Shown here: positions 3,384-56,361 of the stretch, one piece after another | Position numbering within the stretch: the stretch's first letter is position 1 | How the letters are laid out: every line of letters begins with the position of its first letter | Source: an uncultured Clostridium sp. | GTDB taxonomy: Bacteria > Bacillota_I > Bacilli_A > RF39 > UBA660 | Direction: 5' to 3' | DNA length: 64,000 nt | NCBI GenBank assembly: GCA_947427095.1 | Contig: CANEGO010000001.1 | Coordinates: 131,428 to 195,427 of the forward strand | Program-made: the position numbers and the translations under genes | The notes under the pieces: model-generated | Database searches by the model: none | What the model was told of the DNA's origin: nothing | Seen by the model: only the letters and a program-made list of their open reading frames with translations

Positions 3384-4088
3384 CTAATTTGTTTTTTGTT
3401 TCCAATTAAAGCTATAAGAAACATCAGATGTTACTAAAAAGTCTTTTCCACGATCATTATAATCAAAAACGTTTCCTACAAATAGAAAATAAACAGACTG
3501 TTCGGGTTTAACAATTATATTTCCTGTTGAGTCATCAAAAACTTCAGCTAAATCTTCATCAGTAGTTGCTAATGTTCCATCAGCTTTTTCAACTCCTAAC
3601 GGAGCAAAAGAATATATGTTAATGTAACCCCCAATTTGACTATTTATATCATGACACTCATCAGCTTCTTCTATCTGTCCATTAGTCTGATCAATCTGCA
3701 TATTTGGTCCACCATCAATACAAGCTTTTCCAGAAGCAGTTATACCATCAGACATATTTAAAACGGCATCCATCGTCCCGGCATTGGTCATTTTAACCGT
3801 AAAATAACGTCTTGCTCCTGGATAATCAAAATCAACATTAAGAGAAACCGTATTATCAACTACTGTACAACTATCATTTTTATATCCACCTTCGGGATCC
3901 AATCCATTTTCCGATAAAGAACCAAATACTGGGTTAAATCCTGTACTACATGTCGCCGTAATATCAAATTCACCCTTAGCGGTAGCAGTACCATTTATGG
4001 TTATGGTATCTGAAAATATTGCATAACCTACCATCATGGTTACTGCAAGAGCTAGCACTCCTATTATTATTCCTTTTTTCTTATTCAT
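3384..4088 (-). CDS. Secreted protein with a SipW-cognate-class signal peptide (TasA/camelysin-like)
   Basis: The N-terminus MNKKKGIIIGVLALAVTMMVGYAIFSDT resembles the TasA/CalY-type signal region (AAFND-like motif). The mature part is Thr/Asn/Asp-rich. An AGGAG RBS is present. Confidence 0.45.
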   Translation of the reverse strand: MNKKKGIIIGVLALAVTMMVGYAIFSDTITINGTATAKGEFDITATCSTGFNPVFGSLSENGLDPEGGYKNDSCTVVDNTVSLNVDFDYPGARRYFTVKMTNAGTMDAVLNMSDGITASGKACIDGGPNMQIDQTNGQIEEADECHDINSQIGGYINIYSFAPLGVEKADGTLATTDEDLAEVFDDSTGNIIVKPEQSVYFLFVGNVFDYNDRGKDFLVTSDVSYSFNWKQKTN

Positions 4089-4119: not shown

Positions 4120-4152
4120 TTTATAATATCATATACCCCCCCCCGGTCAATA
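4120..4152 (-). promoter_or_regulatory. Candidate sigma-A-type promoter with a G9 homopolymer in the -35/-10 spacer
   Basis: Minus strand reads TTGACC-GGGGGGGGG-TATATGA-TATTAT. The -35 is TTGACC and the -10 is an extended TG-n-TATTAT with a 16-nt spacer. The poly-C on the plus strand is at 4136-4144, about 50 nt upstream of the start codon. Confidence 0.5.
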
Positions 4153-20910: not shown

Positions 20911-21456
20911 TTACTTATTTTGTTTACTATTTATATACTTTTTATATTGTCTTTTACTTAACAGGCATTTTTTTACACCATCAGTTATATCTATCTGCCT
21001 ATCAGCATCATAATAGGTTATAACATCATCATTTTCACTTACTATTCTTTTATCATCTGGTCCTTTAATAGTAACAATAACATTGTTGTTCAAGTCCTCT
21101 ATTTGATCAACATCAATATGTTCTTCTTCACCAGTAATATCAAAATAAATACCTTTTTCATTTAAATAATCACATAATTCATTTAATTTTTTTGTGCTAG
21201 AAGACTTTCTGGCCAAATCATAAATACCAAGAAATATTTCTCCCCATGCAGCAACTCTAACTAAATAATGTACTATATTTATTATCTTATTATCGAAAAC
21301 GCCAAAATAAAATTTAACTAAACCTATACCAACATCACTTGCCCATAAGCTCCAAAACAATTTATTATTTTCTAAATTATTCAAACCAGCAACATTAGCA
21401 TAATTCTTAGTTAAAATACTTTTATTAAAATGTTTATATAACATATATTTTCTCAC
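20911..21456 (-). CDS. Hypothetical protein (paralog of 21527-22054)
   Basis: 181 aa. Its C-terminus KRQYKKYINSKQNK resembles the neighbour's KRQRKKYINSK. The upstream region is duplicated. Confidence 0.4.
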   Translation of the reverse strand: MRKYMLYKHFNKSILTKNYANVAGLNNLENNKLFWSLWASDVGIGLVKFYFGVFDNKIINIVHYLVRVAAWGEIFLGIYDLARKSSSTKKLNELCDYLNEKGIYFDITGEEEHIDVDQIEDLNNNVIVTIKGPDDKRIVSENDDVITYYDADRQIDITDGVKKCLLSKRQYKKYINSKQNK

Positions 21457-21526
21457 CTAAAACACTCCTTTTTCATTTGAATATGTATTATTTTAACATA
21501 TACTCACTTCGTCAAGTTTTTTATTA

Positions 21527-22054
21527 TTATTTACTATTTATATACTTTTTTCTTTGCCTTTTTGTAAGCGTAACATCATTTATTATATCTGTTACATCAA
21601 TAAAATTATCTTGATCTATAAAGACTGTTTCAATATCAGACATCTTAGTAATAACTCCTTTACCTAAAAGTAAGTTTGTTGTTTTAACATCATCACCCAC
21701 TTGTTCTTTAATTAAAAAAGCATGTAACAAATCCTCTTTTGTTATGTCTATATTAATATCATTTAATCTTTTAACTATTTCATCAAGTTTTTTTCTTGAA
21801 CTTACTACGTTTTTCATATCATTAATTCCATAAAAAGCTTGACTTGTCATAATACCCACAAGTCCAATTCTTAATATATTAGCAAATAAATTATCCTCGA
21901 AGTTAAAAATTTGTTGAGCACCAGTAAGTGTCCAATAAGATAAAATTGATGCCCAATTAATTTTTGGATTTTGACTATGATTCTCAAAATTAGCATAATC
22001 AACAATTCTTCCTAATCTATCCATTCCATTTTCGTATAATTTATATTTTTTCAT
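21527..22054 (-). CDS. Hypothetical protein (paralog of 20911-21456)
   Basis: 175 aa. Shared C-terminal motif and shared upstream region. Confidence 0.4.
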   Translation of the reverse strand: MKKYKLYENGMDRLGRIVDYANFENHSQNPKINWASILSYWTLTGAQQIFNFEDNLFANILRIGLVGIMTSQAFYGINDMKNVVSSRKKLDEIVKRLNDINIDITKEDLLHAFLIKEQVGDDVKTTNLLLGKGVITKMSDIETVFIDQDNFIDVTDIINDVTLTKRQRKKYINSK

Positions 22055-22087
22055 TCAAATTTTCCCCCTTTTTCATTTGAATGTGCA

Positions 22088-22118
22088 TTATTTTAACATA
22101 TAACCCCCCCCCGTCAAG
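22088..22118 (-). promoter_or_regulatory. Candidate promoter with a G9 homopolymer in the spacer
   Basis: Minus strand reads TTGACG-GGGGGGGG-TTATATGT-TAAAAT (extended TGn -10). The poly-C on the plus strand is at 22104-22112, about 50 nt upstream of the 21527-22054 start. Confidence 0.5.
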
Positions 22119-22143
22119 TTTTTTTGACATGTGGAAAAACACA

Positions 22144-22176
22144 AATAAAGTGCACATTAATTGTGCACTTTATTTT
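22144..22176. terminator. Perfect palindromic hairpin (aaagtgcaca-ttaa-ttgtgcactt)
   Basis: A 10-bp stem flanked by A and T runs, lying between leuS and the paralog pair. Confidence 0.45.
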
Positions 22177-22302
22177 AGAAAGTAGTATTTTAATTACGCT
22201 TATAATTTTTTTGTGTTTTTTTCATAAACTTCTCAGCTTTTTTATTGTTTTAATATACAAAATAACCACATATCATTAAATACAAGAGAATTTAAAATTC
22301 AA

Positions 22303-22328
22303 CTAAAAAAAGTTCATTTCTGAACTTT
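22303..22328 (-). terminator. leuS intrinsic terminator
   Basis: aaagttca-tttc-tgaacttt hairpin immediately after the leuS stop, with a U run on the minus strand. Confidence 0.55.
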
Positions 22329-22329
22329 T

Positions 22330-24744
22330 TTACTTTACTACTACGTTTACTATTTTATTTTTAATTACAATTACCTTAACTACTTCTTTTCCTTCAGTAT
22401 GTCTTTTAACGTTTTCGCAAGATAACGCTTTTTCTTTGATCACATCTTCAGAATCATCTACTGATATAGTAATCGTTCCTCTTAATTTACCATTTACTTG
22501 AACTGCTATATCAAATTCAGTTTGAACAAGTTTCGCTTCATCATACACTGGCCATGCTTCGTAAGCAATCGTACCTTCATGTCCTAGCATGCTCCATAAC
22601 TCTTCGGTAATATGGGGACATATTGGATTTAACATTTTAACAAGACCCTCCATATATTCCTTAGGAATAACGCTTTCTTTATACATAGCATTAACAAGTA
22701 CCATTAAGTGACTTATTGCTGTATTAAATGATAATTTTTCATAATCATTTGTAACGTTCTTAACCGTTTCATGATAAAGTCTTTCTAAGTTTTTGTTTTC
22801 TTTAATTTCTTTTTGTTCTTCAGTATATAATCTCCATACTCTATCCAAGAACTTCTTAGCACCTTCAACGCCTGACGTACTCCATGGTTTAGAAGCTTCT
22901 AATGGCCCCATAAACATTTCGTATAATCTTAATGTATCAGCACCATATTTTTCTACTATGTCGCTTGGATTAACAACGAATTCTGGGAAACGTTTGCCCA
23001 TCTTTATTCCGTTTTCACCCAATATCATGCCTTGATGAACTAATTTTTTAAATGGTTCTTTAACTGGAGATAATCCTTTGTCATAAAGGTAATTATTCCA
23101 TATCCTAGAATACATTAAGTGTCCAACAGCATGTTCTGGTCCACCAATATATAAATCAACTGGCATCCAATGTTTTAACAATTCTTGGTTAGCGAACTCG
23201 TGTGTATTATGAGGGTCAATGTATCTTAAGAAATACCAACTAGATCCTGCAGAACCTGGCATCGTTGACGTTTCACGGATTCCTTTTTTACCATCTTTTT
23301 CATAAGTTTTCCACTCTTTAGCGTTTTCTAAAGGTGCTTTACCATTATGACCTTTATAGTCTTCTAACTCTGGTAATACAAGTGGTAATTCATCATCAGG
23401 AAGTAAATAATCTGTACCATCTTCCATGTGAACAACCGGTACTGGTTCTCCCCAATATCTTTGCCTTGCAAATATCCATTCTCTAAATCTATAATTAGTT
23501 GTTTTTCTTGCAACACCCATTTTTATTAATTTATCAGTGATAGCTTCTTTTGCTTCTTCTACCGTTAAACCAGTAAACTCTTCAGAATTAATAAGTTTAC
23601 ATCCTTTACCTAAGTAATCTCCCTTTTCAAAAGCAGCTTTGCTTACATCTCTTCCATCAATTACCTGAATCATTGGAATTTTATGTTCTATAGCATATTC
23701 ATAATCTCTTTGGTCGTGAGATGGAACAGCCATAACAGCACCAGTACCATAATTTCCTAAAACAAAGTCTCCTAGGTATACTGGTACTTTTCTACCATTA
23801 ACTGGATTTATCGCTTCTATTCCTTTAAGCACGCAACCTGATTTACCTTTATTAAGTTCGGTTCTATCCATATCGGATTTCTTAAGTGTTTCGTCAATAT
23901 ACTTTTGTGCTTCTTCTTTATTTTCTACCCTTGGCATTAATTCTTTAATTAACTGTCCATCTGGTGCGATAACCATGAACGTAATACCATAAATGGTTTC
24001 TATACAAGTTGTATAAATAGAGAACTTACCTCCACCTACTACGTCAAAGTCTACTTCAACACCGGTTGATTTACCTATCCAGTTTCTTTGCATCTCTTTA
24101 GTGGATGCTGGCCAGTCTATTTCATTTAAACCTTCTAAAAGTCTTTCCGCAAAACGAGGCTGATCAATACATAGTTGCTTCATGTTTCGTCTTACAACCG
24201 GATATCCACCACGTTCTGATTTACCGTCAATTACTTCGTCGTTAGATAAAACGGTTCCTAACTCTTCACACCAGTTAACTGGCATATCAATGTATTTTGC
24301 ATAACCATCTTTATATAATTGTTTAAATATCCATTGTGTCCATTTATAGTATGATGGATCTGATGTTGATATTACTCTATCCCAATCATAATCGAAACCT
24401 AGTTCTTTAAGCTGATTAGTAAAATATTGTATATTTTTCTCAGTAAACCCACTTGGGTGATTACCAGTTTGAACCGCATATTGTTCCGCTGGAAGACCAA
24501 ACGAATCATATCCCATTGGATGTAAAACGTTATACCCTTGCATCCTTTTCATACGTGATACAATGTCAGTTGCCGTATAACCTTCAGGATGTCCTGCATG
24601 TAAACCTACTCCTGATGGATAAGGAAACATATCAAGTGCGTAAAACTTCGGCTTCGAAAAGTCCCAAACGTCAGTTTTAAACGTTTTATTATCTTCCCAA
24701 TACCGTTGCCATTTCTTTTCTATTTCTTTAAAATTATATTCCAT
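22330..24744 (-). CDS. leuS: Leucyl-tRNA synthetase
   Basis: 804 aa. HAGH-type HIGH motif (HAGHPEGYTATD), a KMSKS region and an editing domain. The N-terminus is typical (MEYNFKEIEKKWQRYWEDNKTFK). Confidence 0.95.
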   Translation of the reverse strand: MEYNFKEIEKKWQRYWEDNKTFKTDVWDFSKPKFYALDMFPYPSGVGLHAGHPEGYTATDIVSRMKRMQGYNVLHPMGYDSFGLPAEQYAVQTGNHPSGFTEKNIQYFTNQLKELGFDYDWDRVISTSDPSYYKWTQWIFKQLYKDGYAKYIDMPVNWCEELGTVLSNDEVIDGKSERGGYPVVRRNMKQLCIDQPRFAERLLEGLNEIDWPASTKEMQRNWIGKSTGVEVDFDVVGGGKFSIYTTCIETIYGITFMVIAPDGQLIKELMPRVENKEEAQKYIDETLKKSDMDRTELNKGKSGCVLKGIEAINPVNGRKVPVYLGDFVLGNYGTGAVMAVPSHDQRDYEYAIEHKIPMIQVIDGRDVSKAAFEKGDYLGKGCKLINSEEFTGLTVEEAKEAITDKLIKMGVARKTTNYRFREWIFARQRYWGEPVPVVHMEDGTDYLLPDDELPLVLPELEDYKGHNGKAPLENAKEWKTYEKDGKKGIRETSTMPGSAGSSWYFLRYIDPHNTHEFANQELLKHWMPVDLYIGGPEHAVGHLMYSRIWNNYLYDKGLSPVKEPFKKLVHQGMILGENGIKMGKRFPEFVVNPSDIVEKYGADTLRLYEMFMGPLEASKPWSTSGVEGAKKFLDRVWRLYTEEQKEIKENKNLERLYHETVKNVTNDYEKLSFNTAISHLMVLVNAMYKESVIPKEYMEGLVKMLNPICPHITEELWSMLGHEGTIAYEAWPVYDEAKLVQTEFDIAVQVNGKLRGTITISVDDSEDVIKEKALSCENVKRHTEGKEVVKVIVIKNKIVNVVVK

Positions 24745-25111: not shown

Positions 25112-25385
25112 TTAAATAAAAAAAGTTCATCCTAAATAAAGGATGAACTTTCGTCCACGGTACCACCTTAATTTATACATAATTTATGTATACACTTAAT
25201 AATCCATAACGAGATAAACCGTACTATATTACTATTATTTCACATAATAACTCCGAAGCTAGTTCACTTAGTACGCTTTGTTTATTCCCACCAAACATAA
25301 ACTCTCTTTAAAAGCATATCTAACTTAATACTCTTCATCAACGTTTTAATACTTATAGTATATTATTTTAATTAATAAAAATCAA
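25112..25385 (-). promoter_or_regulatory. T-box riboswitch leader controlling the membrane protein-leuS operon (probable Leu specifier)
   Basis: The minus strand contains an AGAGAG stem I element and a candidate specifier CUA-A. It also has the T-box sequence AAGGUGGUACCGUGGACGAAAG overlapping a terminator hairpin (aaagttcatcc-tttattt-aggatgaacttt) followed by a U7 run. Confidence 0.6.
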
Positions 25386-32480: not shown

Positions 32481-34292
32481 TTACTCAACCGTAACTGACT
32501 TAGCTAAATTTTTAGGTTTATCAATGTTACAATTCTTTATTTTAGCCACCTCATAGGCTATCATTTGAAGTGGAATTATGGTAAGAAGTGATTGAAATAA
32601 CTTATGGGTACGTGGAATTATAAGTCTTTCATCATACAAACGGCTTTTTTCATCATTTAGTCTATTAGTTATGTATAAAACATTTGCCCCTCTTGACTTT
32701 ACCTCAATTATGTTACTTATCGTTTTAGGAGCTATTAAATCATCCGTCACTATCCCAATTACTGGTGTTCCTTCTTCTATTAGTGATATAGTACCATGTT
32801 TTAATTCTCCTGCTGCATACGCTTCACTATGAGTGTAGGATATCTCTTTTAATTTCAAAGACCCCTCTTGAGCTAAAGCATAATCTACTTTCCTACCAAT
32901 AAAGAATATATCATTATGGCAAGAGAGCCTCTCGGCTATTTTTCTATATCTTTCATCGTTACTAAGTAGTTCTTCCATTTGACTTGGTAAACTCCTTACA
33001 CTATTTAAAATTTCCTTCATCTCTTGACTGGAAATTAAATTCTTTTTATAAGAAAGGTTAAGTGCTATTAACGATAGCATAGCGACTTGCGCAGAATAAG
33101 CCTTAGTTGTTGCAACAGCAATCTCCTTTCCGGCTTCGGTATAAAGAACCATATCAGCTTCTCTTGCAATTGAACTACCTTTAGCATTAATTATTCCCAA
33201 GGTATCATTTCCATTATCTTTAGCTAATTTTAAAGCCCCTAAAGTATCAGCGGTTTCACCTGATTGTGATATTACTATAACTAGTTCATCTTTATTTAAA
33301 AACGGTTTGCTATACCTAAACTCACTTGCGGTTTCAACATCAGTCTTAACGTTACCATACTCCTCTAACATTTGTTTTCCAACTAGCGCAGCATGAGTAG
33401 CACTACCACAAGCCACTATTCTTACCTTGTTATACTTAGTAAAATCCGGCATCTTAGAAACCAATCCATCAAAATCAGTATTGACATATGGATTAACTGT
33501 TTTCTTAAACACATCAGGTTGTTCATGAATCTCTTTTAACATATAATGTGGATAACCTTTTTTATCCATTAGATCAGCATCAAATTCAAACTTCTGAACT
33601 TTAAATTCTTTTTCCTTTCCATTATTATAAACGTTTATTTTATTTTGGGTTATAACCCCGTAATCCCCATCATCTAACGCAATATAGTTGTCAGTTTTAT
33701 CTAAAACTGCTGGAACATCAGAAGCAATAAAGTTTTCCTCTCGTCCAACACCTATAATTAGTGGACTTTTATTTTTTGCAACGTATAGTTTATCCTTTTC
33801 ATCATCACATATAAGACCAATCGCATAAGAACCTATTACTACCGCACCAGCTTTTCTTATTACATTTAAAACGTTTTTATCTTTTTTATAAAGATAATCT
33901 AAAAGAGCACATAAAACCTCAGTATCAGTATCAGATTTAAATGAATAACCCTTTTTTTCCAAATCGGCTCTAAGAGATGCATAATTTTCAATTATTCCAT
34001 TATGTACAATCGTAAAACTACCAACATGATGAGGATGAGAATTTTCCTTTCTTGCCTCTCCATGGGTTGCCCATCTGGTATGACCAATTCCAATATTCGA
34101 ATCATTAGAAAAATTAATGATATTTTTCAAATTTTCTAATTTACCATTTTCTTTAAATATTTTAATAGAGCCGTTATGAACATAAGCTATTCCAGCCGAA
34201 TCATAACCCCTATATTCCAATTTTTCTAAACCGTCAATTAAAACACGTACACAATTGTCCTTCTTGCCTACGTAACCAACTATTCCACACAT
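32481..34292 (-). CDS. glmS: Glutamine--fructose-6-phosphate aminotransferase
   Basis: 603 aa. N-terminal MCGIVGYVG (Ntn Cys) followed by two SIS domains. Confidence 0.95.
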   Translation of the reverse strand: MCGIVGYVGKKDNCVRVLIDGLEKLEYRGYDSAGIAYVHNGSIKIFKENGKLENLKNIINFSNDSNIGIGHTRWATHGEARKENSHPHHVGSFTIVHNGIIENYASLRADLEKKGYSFKSDTDTEVLCALLDYLYKKDKNVLNVIRKAGAVVIGSYAIGLICDDEKDKLYVAKNKSPLIIGVGREENFIASDVPAVLDKTDNYIALDDGDYGVITQNKINVYNNGKEKEFKVQKFEFDADLMDKKGYPHYMLKEIHEQPDVFKKTVNPYVNTDFDGLVSKMPDFTKYNKVRIVACGSATHAALVGKQMLEEYGNVKTDVETASEFRYSKPFLNKDELVIVISQSGETADTLGALKLAKDNGNDTLGIINAKGSSIAREADMVLYTEAGKEIAVATTKAYSAQVAMLSLIALNLSYKKNLISSQEMKEILNSVRSLPSQMEELLSNDERYRKIAERLSCHNDIFFIGRKVDYALAQEGSLKLKEISYTHSEAYAAGELKHGTISLIEEGTPVIGIVTDDLIAPKTISNIIEVKSRGANVLYITNRLNDEKSRLYDERLIIPRTHKLFQSLLTIIPLQMIAYEVAKIKNCNIDKPKNLAKSVTVE

Positions 34293-34299
34293 ATTATTA

Positions 34300-34470
34300 A
34301 ATTCTCCTTTTTAATGCATAATAAAAATAACTGTGTGAAATACTCCTCTGTTATAATCTTTATTTTATATTTTAAAAGTATTTCTTACGAGTAACAAACC
34401 CGCCTGAGTATCCGCCGAACATTTCGATAACCCAGAACCTCGTCACCCATTTAAGGGTCTGGCGCTAGAA
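34300..34470 (-). ncRNA. glmS ribozyme (GlcN6P-responsive) in the glmS 5' UTR
   Basis: The minus strand carries the ribozyme motifs: cleavage-site A-GCGCCAGA, GACGAGG, UUAUCGAAA and UUCGGCGGAU, in the canonical order upstream of glmS. Confidence 0.7.
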
Positions 34471-34567
34471 TAAAAAGTAATCCTCCAAGTACTTTTTTAT
34501 CTTTATGCATTATATTATACGAAAAAAAGAAAGTTTGTGCAACCTTCTTTTGGACCGTAACTTTTCA

Positions 34568-49778: not shown

Positions 49779-51924
<2,146 letters not shown>

Positions 51925-52429: not shown

Positions 52430-52558
52430 TTTAAAAAAATATGCATTAGAAACAGCGCTTTTTTGCTGATATTTTAATGAAGTTTAACTAATTTTAATCG
52501 TTTTAAAAAGGGCTTAAATTTAAAGAAAATTCAGAAAAATTAAAATAAATTTAACAAT

Positions 52559-52582
52559 TTGGCACGATTTTGGCACGATTTT
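52559..52582 (+). repeat. Tandem TTGGCACGATTTT-GGCACGATTTT repeat (left end of the island)
   Basis: Directly visible. A degenerate third copy TTGGTGCGACGATTTT lies at 52365-52380. Confidence 0.6.
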
Positions 52583-55881: not shown

Positions 55882-56093
55882 TTTAATAATAAATATTTTT
55901 AGAAAAAATATAATTTTGTAAAAAAGATAATTAAAAATTGTAAAATTTGTTTAATTATCTTTTTTAATTTGTTTAAAGCTCTAACCCTGGTTTCAGCCAT
56001 AAAATTTTAATTATATTTATATTAATTTCAACGAGTTTTAAACAAAAGTATAATAGATTATGATTAAAAAATATTAATCTATAGTTTATTATT

Positions 56094-56118
56094 TTGGCAC
56101 GATTTTTGGCACGATTTT
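56094..56118 (+). repeat. Tandem TTGGCACGATTTTT-GGCACGATTTT repeat (right end of the island)
   Basis: Directly visible. Same unit and orientation as 52559-52582. Confidence 0.6.
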
Positions 56119-56207: not shown

Positions 56208-56282
56208 TGGAGCAAGTGATGGGAATCGAACCCACGTCTCAGCCTTGGCAAGGCCGCGTACTAGCCGTTGTACTACACCTGC
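56208..56282 (-). tRNA. tRNA-Gly (anticodon GCC)
   Basis: The reverse complement GCAGGTGTAGTACAACGGCTAGTACGCGGCCTTGCCAAGGCTGAGACGTGGGTTCGATTCCCATCACTTGCTCCA folds as a cloverleaf with anticodon loop UUGCCAA and an encoded CCA. Confidence 0.85.
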
Positions 56283-56286
56283 AAAA

Positions 56287-56361
56287 TGGAGGGGCCAGCC
56301 GGACTTGAACCGGCGATCGTGGAGTTGCAGTCCAATGCCTTACCAACTTGGCTATAGCCCC
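56287..56361 (-). tRNA. tRNA-Cys (anticodon GCA)
   Basis: The reverse complement GGGGCTATAGCCAAGTTGGTAAGGCATTGGACTGCAACTCCA...GGTTCAAGTCCGGCTGGCCCCTCCA folds as a cloverleaf with anticodon loop CUGCAAC. Confidence 0.85.

Follow-up and report, generated by a model that had tools for sequence, protein, structure and literature searches.

The window analyzed here (the whole stretch of DNA, 64 kb in length, with a G+C content of 28%) contains two runs of at least six G or C residues, each exactly 9 nt long (22104-22112 and 4136-4144). Both of them have G on the minus (sense) strand and are located between a TTGAC box and a TGnTAnnAT box. The pattern TTGACS-GGGGG-N11-TAWAAT (with at most two mismatches) was found twice in the window, whereas 0.01 matches were expected from shuffled sequences; the presence of two spacer G9 runs in the window is far beyond chance. 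The run at 22104-22112 is part of a predicted promoter in front of an orphan gene, and the following features could be identified at this locus:

22143-22175, minus strand: intrinsic terminator hairpin with a 14-bp stem and a T run, immediately upstream of the G9 promoter
22112-22117, minus strand: predicted -35 hexamer TTGACG, which shares its final G with the start of the tract; TTGAC is kept at the homologous position in three orthologs (L005-L007)
22104-22112, minus strand: G9 homopolymer (C9 on the plus strand), hypermutable, filling the free part of the spacer
22090-22098, minus strand: predicted extended -10 element, TGT plus TAAAAT (hexamer 22095-22090, preceded by TG)
22064-22068, minus strand: ribosome-binding site GGGGG in a leader of ~29 nt, invariant in 10/10 assemblies
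21527-22054, minus strand: gene for a 175-aa orphan protein, downstream of the variable promoter

On the minus strand, the locus reads ...caaaaaaaCTTGACGGGGGGGGGTTATATGTTAAAATaatgcacattcaaatgaaaaaGGGGGaaaatttgaATG, and positions 22117-22090 correspond to TTGACG-(G8 TTATATGT)-TAAAAT, which is the arrangement that the initial annotation had described upstream of 21527-22054. The predicted promoter (22090-22117) had the best sigma-70-like score in the region, and with G9 its -35/-10 spacer is 16 nt long. The distance from the end of the -10 box to the ATG (22054) is 35 nt, and the G tract lies ~50 nt before this codon. Considering the strong terminator upstream (22175-22143), the G9 promoter should be insulated from leuS read-through. 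No Rfam match was found in or around the locus (22088-22118). It should be noted that the gap of ~190 nt between the leuS terminator and the G9 promoter (22125-22330, minus strand) contains a strong terminator of its own (22175-22143) and a tiny ORF (MKKTQKNYKRN); this gap, which had no Rfam match either, might represent a remnant or a gene for a small RNA or a peptide.

Searches of Pfam, PHROG, PADLOC and NCBIfam returned no match to the 175-aa protein, and homologs with a known function could not be detected. When 1.84 billion representative proteins were searched with a full profile, 24 representatives of the family were found; a word-indexed search revealed four clusters, and nothing was found in viral contigs or JGI metagenomes. 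Members of the family are ~160-190 aa long and have MKKYKLY conserved at the N-terminus, together with a DITD motif and a basic tail, and the AF2 model of the 175-aa protein (pLDDT 81.7) has a small C-terminal beta domain. No signal peptide could be observed in this protein, whose helices are only marginally hydrophobic (KD maximum 1.39, internal). Judged by these features, the product would not be a typical one for contingency loci, which usually encode surface antigens; its participation in phage exclusion or immunity is speculation.

Examination of orthologs provided information on the history of the promoter. In L005, an ortholog with 76% identity, the upstream DNA is different, yet the gene is again preceded by a spacer run, in TTGACA-T-G11-TATGT-TATCAT, with a 17-nt spacer and TGn. 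Two orthologs of 53-55% identity (L006 and L007) have a plain TTGACA-17-TAT(G/T)AT at the homologous position, with no tract. The occurrence of a plain promoter at this place in L006 and L007 suggests that the promoter is old and that the G run arose within it.

We then compared the tract among 13 independent assemblies of the species (the window included), which were found by exact-protein look-ups and represent many separate sequencing runs. All tract alleles were taken from short-read assemblies (Logan and ENA), and the lengths are assembly consensus values at the population level. Nine assemblies had G9 (the window, L002, L003, L004, L013, L014, L016, L017 and L019), two had G10 (L011 and L001, the latter being the same contig as L012), one had G8 (L020) and one had G7 (L015). 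The 45 nt on each side of the tract were identical across assemblies, with L015 as the one exception, in which divergence of the upstream DNA starts ~15 nt ahead of the -35 box. Over the adjoining 2.5-3.6 kb, strains differed by 0.1-1.8% SNPs with no sign of indels in an ungapped comparison, and all six control homopolymers within 2.5 kb of flanking DNA (four A7, one A8 and one G5) were invariant in 10/10 assemblies. The initial annotation had proposed that the tract is phase-variable in length, and the G7-G10 polymorphism with identical flanks agrees with this proposal. Two outcomes had been specified in advance as evidence against it, namely absence of other copies and absence of length polymorphism, and both were contradicted by the data.

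Comparison of haplotypes revealed how fast the tract changes. L011 (G10) showed 0 mismatches with L016 and L017 (both G9) over 3825 nt, and 0 mismatches with L019 (G9) over 2793 nt. In addition, G10 was found on two haplotypes six SNPs apart, each with a G9 nearest neighbor, and is homoplastic. Both the zero-SNP haplotype carrying G9 and G10 and the presence of G10 on two haplotypes indicate that tract length changed repeatedly, faster than point mutations accumulate. The tract is hypermutable between as well as within haplotypes, and the recurrence of G10 is only suggestive of reversibility or of heterogeneity within populations.

Differences in homopolymer length might also be artifacts of sequencing or assembly, considering that all alleles come from short-read assemblies (Logan, ENA), that a homopolymer consensus can err by one base and that two contigs covering the second locus described below (L023 and L024) end exactly at its tract. 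Such artifacts are, however, an extremely improbable source of the variation observed here: the 13 independent assemblies gave four lengths over a 4-base range, the invariance of the A7, A8 and G5 controls (10/10 assemblies) argues against one-base errors in this case, and a tract, of other lengths, is also present in diverged orthologs that were obtained by different projects. At 9 nt, the run is within the range in which a homopolymer is long enough to slip (~7 or more); it is placed between the -35 and -10 boxes of a promoter that is predicted from sequence and conserved in position in orthologs, and among the 13 assemblies its length changes at high frequency independently of the flanks. 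As a separate observation, an IS3-type element (rve transposase fragment) is present at the leuS terminator in many other strains and contigs break there (L002 1-260, the start of L003, the start of L001 and L015 1-45); in the G7 strain L015, foreign DNA starts only ~15 nt upstream of the -35 box.

A tandem paralog follows the 175-aa gene, and the 5' regions of the two genes were compared using these features:

22067-22102, minus strand: promoter/leader module, copy 1, a 94% match to copy 2, 600 nt apart
21467-21502, minus strand: promoter/leader module, copy 2, a 94% match to copy 1
21487-21515, minus strand: locked promoter TTGACG-AAGTGAGTATATGT-TAAAAT with a 14-nt spacer (or a 17-nt one, counted to the weaker AATAAT)
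20911-21456, minus strand: gene for the 181-aa paralog, 32% identical to the 175-aa protein (E 5e-15)

Duplication of the 5' region upstream of both paralogs had been reported previously, and formal alignment of 21467-21502 with 22067-22102 (94%) corroborated it; no third copy of the module was found in the window. Outside the tract, the promoter and leader of the tandem paralogs are ~96% identical, as against ~55% for the coding DNA. The 181-aa protein shows greater identity to other branches of the family (36-39%) than to its 175-aa neighbor, and the two genes appear to be true but distant paralogs. The 181-aa protein has no N-terminal hydrophobic signal (KD maximum 1.44, internal).

The two promoters differ in the spacer, in which GAAGTGAG (8 nt) stands where the variable promoter has G9T (10 nt). 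The initial annotation was right that the tract is replaced in the paralog, by GAAGTGAG, but the promoter is not simply a tract-less version, as its spacer measures 14 nt. The sequence of the locked promoter was invariant in 10/10 other assemblies containing the 181-aa paralog, and the gene was intact in all strains containing it. The suggestion that one paralog is variable and the other locked is borne out, as far as the DNA is concerned, by G7-G10 versus an invariant GAAGTGAG. A putative phase-variable promoter with a locked sibling is well supported at the DNA level, and the sibling promoter, with its 14-nt spacer, is presumably still used.

Copy-number polymorphism was also observed at this locus. 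L003 (294-830) and L004 (86-622) carry one 178-aa gene where the window has the tandem pair, and the encoded protein (P0001) is 95% identical to the 175-aa protein but ends in ...KQNK like the 181-aa paralog. The 3' ends of the two paralogs (20920-20955 and 21527-21562) are 86% identical, which suggests that the single 178-aa gene may have been generated by recombination between these conserved 3' ends.

The second G9 run of the window was found in a promoter of the same design, upstream of an unrelated gene:

4123-4150, minus strand: second G9-spacer promoter, TTGACC-G9-TATATGA-TATTAT (tract 4136-4144, 16-nt spacer, TGn)
3384-4088, minus strand: gene for a 234-aa exported beta-sandwich protein, under the second G9 promoter

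A strong signal or anchor helix (KD 2.49) without a Cys lipobox is located at the N-terminus of the 234-aa protein, and the model of this protein is a confident beta-sandwich (pLDDT 86.8) with only non-significant Foldseek matches in PDB and no recognizable relative there. A SipW/TasA-type signal was considered for its N-terminus and dropped, because no such match was present in NCBIfam or Pfam and the Foldseek result was non-significant. Exact look-ups of the hydrolase and of the 234-aa protein yielded no further strains. Homologs could be identified in two other MAGs. In L022 (GCA_949288625.1), the gene for a homolog with 46% identity to the 234-aa protein is located behind a near-identical promoter with G9, and the promoter of its tandem paralog reads TTGACA-GGAACTTT-G6-ATGA-TATTAT. 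Identity between the tandem genes of this genome (9267-10714), whose leaders are nearly the same, is 99% in the first 90 coding nt and drops to 53% thereafter; this pattern suggests that the 5' module may have undergone gene conversion or that the gene body may be under diversifying selection. In L021 (GCA_964616405.1), a 66% ortholog of the 234-aa gene is preceded by TTGACG-T-G12-TTATTC-TAAAAT. Each of the two families has its own conserved expression module and, in the spacer, a G run whose length depends on the lineage, and each includes a tract-poor sibling. Metagenomes were also scanned for the sibling promoter, and no match was obtained. Two independent metagenome contigs, L023 (1-10) and L024 (1), end at or just after the promoter tract of the 234-aa locus, which is consistent with length heterogeneity or with poor sequencing through the run. 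It should also be noted that a gene for a PD-(D/E)XK nuclease-family transposase (PF12784; 975-1943, minus strand), which contains a 12/24-nt tandem repeat (1097-1174), is located a few genes from the 4123-4150 locus.

The core TTGAC-G9-T(T)ATATG is common to the promoters at 22088-22118 and 4120-4152, which precede unrelated genes, as the initial annotation pointed out, and a reusable phase-variable promoter cassette had been proposed on this basis. A mobile or copy-pasted cassette inserted before unrelated genes would account for this core at both loci, and also for the observation that within each family the promoter and leader are far better conserved than the coding body. Nevertheless, identity between the two families is only 68% over 75 nt of AT-rich sequence and does not extend beyond functional promoter elements, the common ones being TTGAC, the G run, TATG-n and the -10 box. 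No terminal (inverted) repeats, target duplications or extra copies could be found in the window. In the ortholog series, the G run originates inside a homologous promoter that was already present (TTGACA-17-TATnAT). A scan of 185,579 reference genomes with the exact promoter and a variable gap returned unrelated consensus promoters only, namely three chance matches without a tract in unrelated higher-GC Clostridia MAGs. A mobile cassette or miniature insertion element would be expected to have defined ends and to recur before unrelated genes, whereas the module was found only as a tandem pair. Since the shared parts are generic promoter elements plus a tract that arose in situ, the proposal of a cassette was not supported, and mobile DNA would be a most improbable origin of the two promoters.

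The TATG-n of both G9 promoters is the TRTG -16/extended -10 motif. This motif is typical of Gram-positive promoters and is reportedly common among them. We read the two promoters as the same solution reached under the same constraints, which may be independent or kept up by each gene family on its own, rather than as mobile DNA. What appears cassette-like is instead a trait within each family, in which the promoter, leader and 5' end stay constant and the gene body diverges or is exchanged.

With regard to function, the G run at 22104-22112 is probably a simple-sequence contingency locus within a sigma-70-type promoter, in which slippage would alter spacing and thereby transcription of the 175-aa gene. 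The G9 tract is most likely a 'dimmer switch' of the classic slippage kind that acts on an orphan gene. Replication slippage in a run of 7-12 G would add or remove a single residue. Between TTGACG and the -16/-10 element TATGT-TAAAAT, very little of the unconstrained spacer lies outside the run, so that each slip would shift the -35/-10 spacing by one base, resulting in predicted spacings of 14 nt for G7, 15 nt for G8, 16 nt for G9, 17 nt for G10 and 18 nt for G11. Under this model, the 175-aa gene should be transcribed most strongly near G10 (17 nt), at an intermediate level with G9 or G11, and poorly with G7-G8 or G12. The outcome would be mixed populations with differing expression levels that are heritable yet reversible. 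In the paralog, GAAGTGAG would break the run, fix the spacing and remove the switch. Between the 175-aa gene and the genes that follow it, no terminator could be detected, and thus transcription might read through into the paralog and beyond. We infer that the predicted promoter is the active one, that spacing controls its strength and that switching is biologically useful. However, extended -10 (TGn) promoters depend less on the -35 box, and the switching amplitude could therefore be small, that is, graded rather than on/off.

It might even be argued that the tract is a tolerated mutational hotspot with little regulatory effect, the promoter running mainly on its extended -10 element. TGn is present in both G9 promoters, the paralog has a 14-nt promoter spacer and an intact gene in all strains, and the most frequent allele, G9, sets a sub-optimal spacing of 16 nt. 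Such near-neutrality seems unlikely, considering that a neutral G9-G12 run should decay quickly in a genome with 28% GC. Instead, spacer runs persist in diverged lineages and in two unrelated families (G11 in L005, G12 in L021 and G9 in L022), whereas the 64-kb window has no G/C run of such length (six or more) elsewhere. The run may also act otherwise than by spacing, either as a binding site for a regulator or as stiff DNA affecting promoter opening. In every case seen, the run is sense-strand G and abuts the -35 box, and the effects of the tracts of Neisseria meningitidis opc and Treponema pallidum tpr exceed those of spacing, with a CRP homolog acting jointly with tract length (PMC7864442). 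However, no candidate regulator was found here, and the observed spacers, which range from 14 to 19 nt, cluster at 16-17 nt (G9-G11) as expected from the spacing model, so that a role independent of spacing appears very unlikely.

Promoter switches based on slippage are textbook knowledge in a few pathogens (Neisseria, Haemophilus, Treponema and Mycoplasma). In the Mycoplasma hyorhinis Vlp system, a poly-A tract is located in the promoter spacer of tandem lipoprotein genes, each of which is controlled independently. The locus described here resembles this system in that each of the tandem paralogs has a conserved promoter/5' module followed by a diverged body, and in that the host, by NCBI labeling, belongs to the broader low-GC Bacilli/Mollicutes neighborhood. 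It differs from Vlp in having poly-G instead of poly-A, in lacking a lipoprotein signal and in having the tract in only one of the two tandem genes. Lipobox surface lipoproteins, which characterize Vlp-type systems, were not found among the 175-, 181- and 234-aa proteins, and these had no family matches. In contrast with M. hyorhinis, the host here also has peptidoglycan genes (murF and ddl).

In Neisseria, tracts between the -10 and -35 boxes of fetA and porA alter expression (PMC5320596). The present tract is similar to those of N. meningitidis and N. gonorrhoeae porA (poly-G) and fetA/frpB (poly-C) in being a G/C run of strain-variable length within the spacer (PMC5320596; PMC7864442). Slippage in porA and fetA changes spacing and grades transcription, an effect that is here only predicted. 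Moreover, these systems belong to Gram-negative pathogens and control outer-membrane products, whereas here a Bacilli-type MAG with a TRTG/extended -10 promoter and a non-secreted orphan product is concerned. In T. pallidum tp0126, a poly-G tract is located between -35 and -10 and transcription is optimal at 17-nt spacing, and the tprL tracts contain 7 to 11 G with 9 predominant (PMC7864442). The same position of the poly-G tract and a similar distribution of lengths (7-10, with a mode of 9) were found here. T. pallidum differs in being a spirochete pathogen with outer-membrane products, and its variation was observed within isolates by fragment analysis, whereas ours was observed between assemblies. 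According to a recent review, genomes with many such loci seem to be restricted to pathogens, which may merely reflect database bias (PMC11868660).

Thus the mechanism of the switch is known, and what is new is the organism and the gene, namely an uncultured low-GC Bacilli-type host, represented solely by metagenome assemblies, and a non-secreted orphan product. Length variation at the population level was seen at one locus, and a G9 promoter of the same design is present before a second, unrelated gene in the window. These results point to bet-hedging of the slippage-switch type outside the classic pathogens and flag two orphan protein families as probably being under fluctuating selection. 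In addition, the natural pair of a variable and a locked promoter offers a built-in control for spacer-length tuning of an extended -10 Gram-positive promoter. It is conceivable, although rather doubtful, that this commensal lineage runs a multi-locus contingency system, in which family-specific expression modules (G-tract promoter, leader and first codons) are kept near-identical by gene conversion before fast-diversifying bodies, with tandem pairs of variable and locked genes; the non-secreted 175- and 181-aa orphans might then have a role inside the cell that is new among phase-variable functions, for instance in phage exclusion or in immunity.

Several other features of the window were also recorded. 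Its murF and ddl genes, T-box and glmS ribozyme are what would be expected in a low-GC Firmicute with a cell wall. The T-box leader (25136-25350, minus strand) is located upstream of an operon of a small membrane-protein gene and leuS, and the glmS ribozyme (34328-34477, minus strand) is located upstream of an ORF of 603 aa (32481-34292); both are ordinary Firmicute riboregulators and are useful for placing the organism. An 871-aa ORF was considered as MutS, which would have been a clue to mismatch repair in the window, and this was rejected because the ORF encodes a P-type ATPase. Finally, perfect short tandem repeats, TTTGGCACGAT / TTTTGGCACGAT, were found 3.5 kb apart at 52558-52582 and 56092-56118. 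A gene for a large serine recombinase (50008-51879) and a pair of tRNA genes (56211-56361) are located nearby, and the repeats could be boundaries of an integrated element or represent a TGGCACG sigma-54-like motif.
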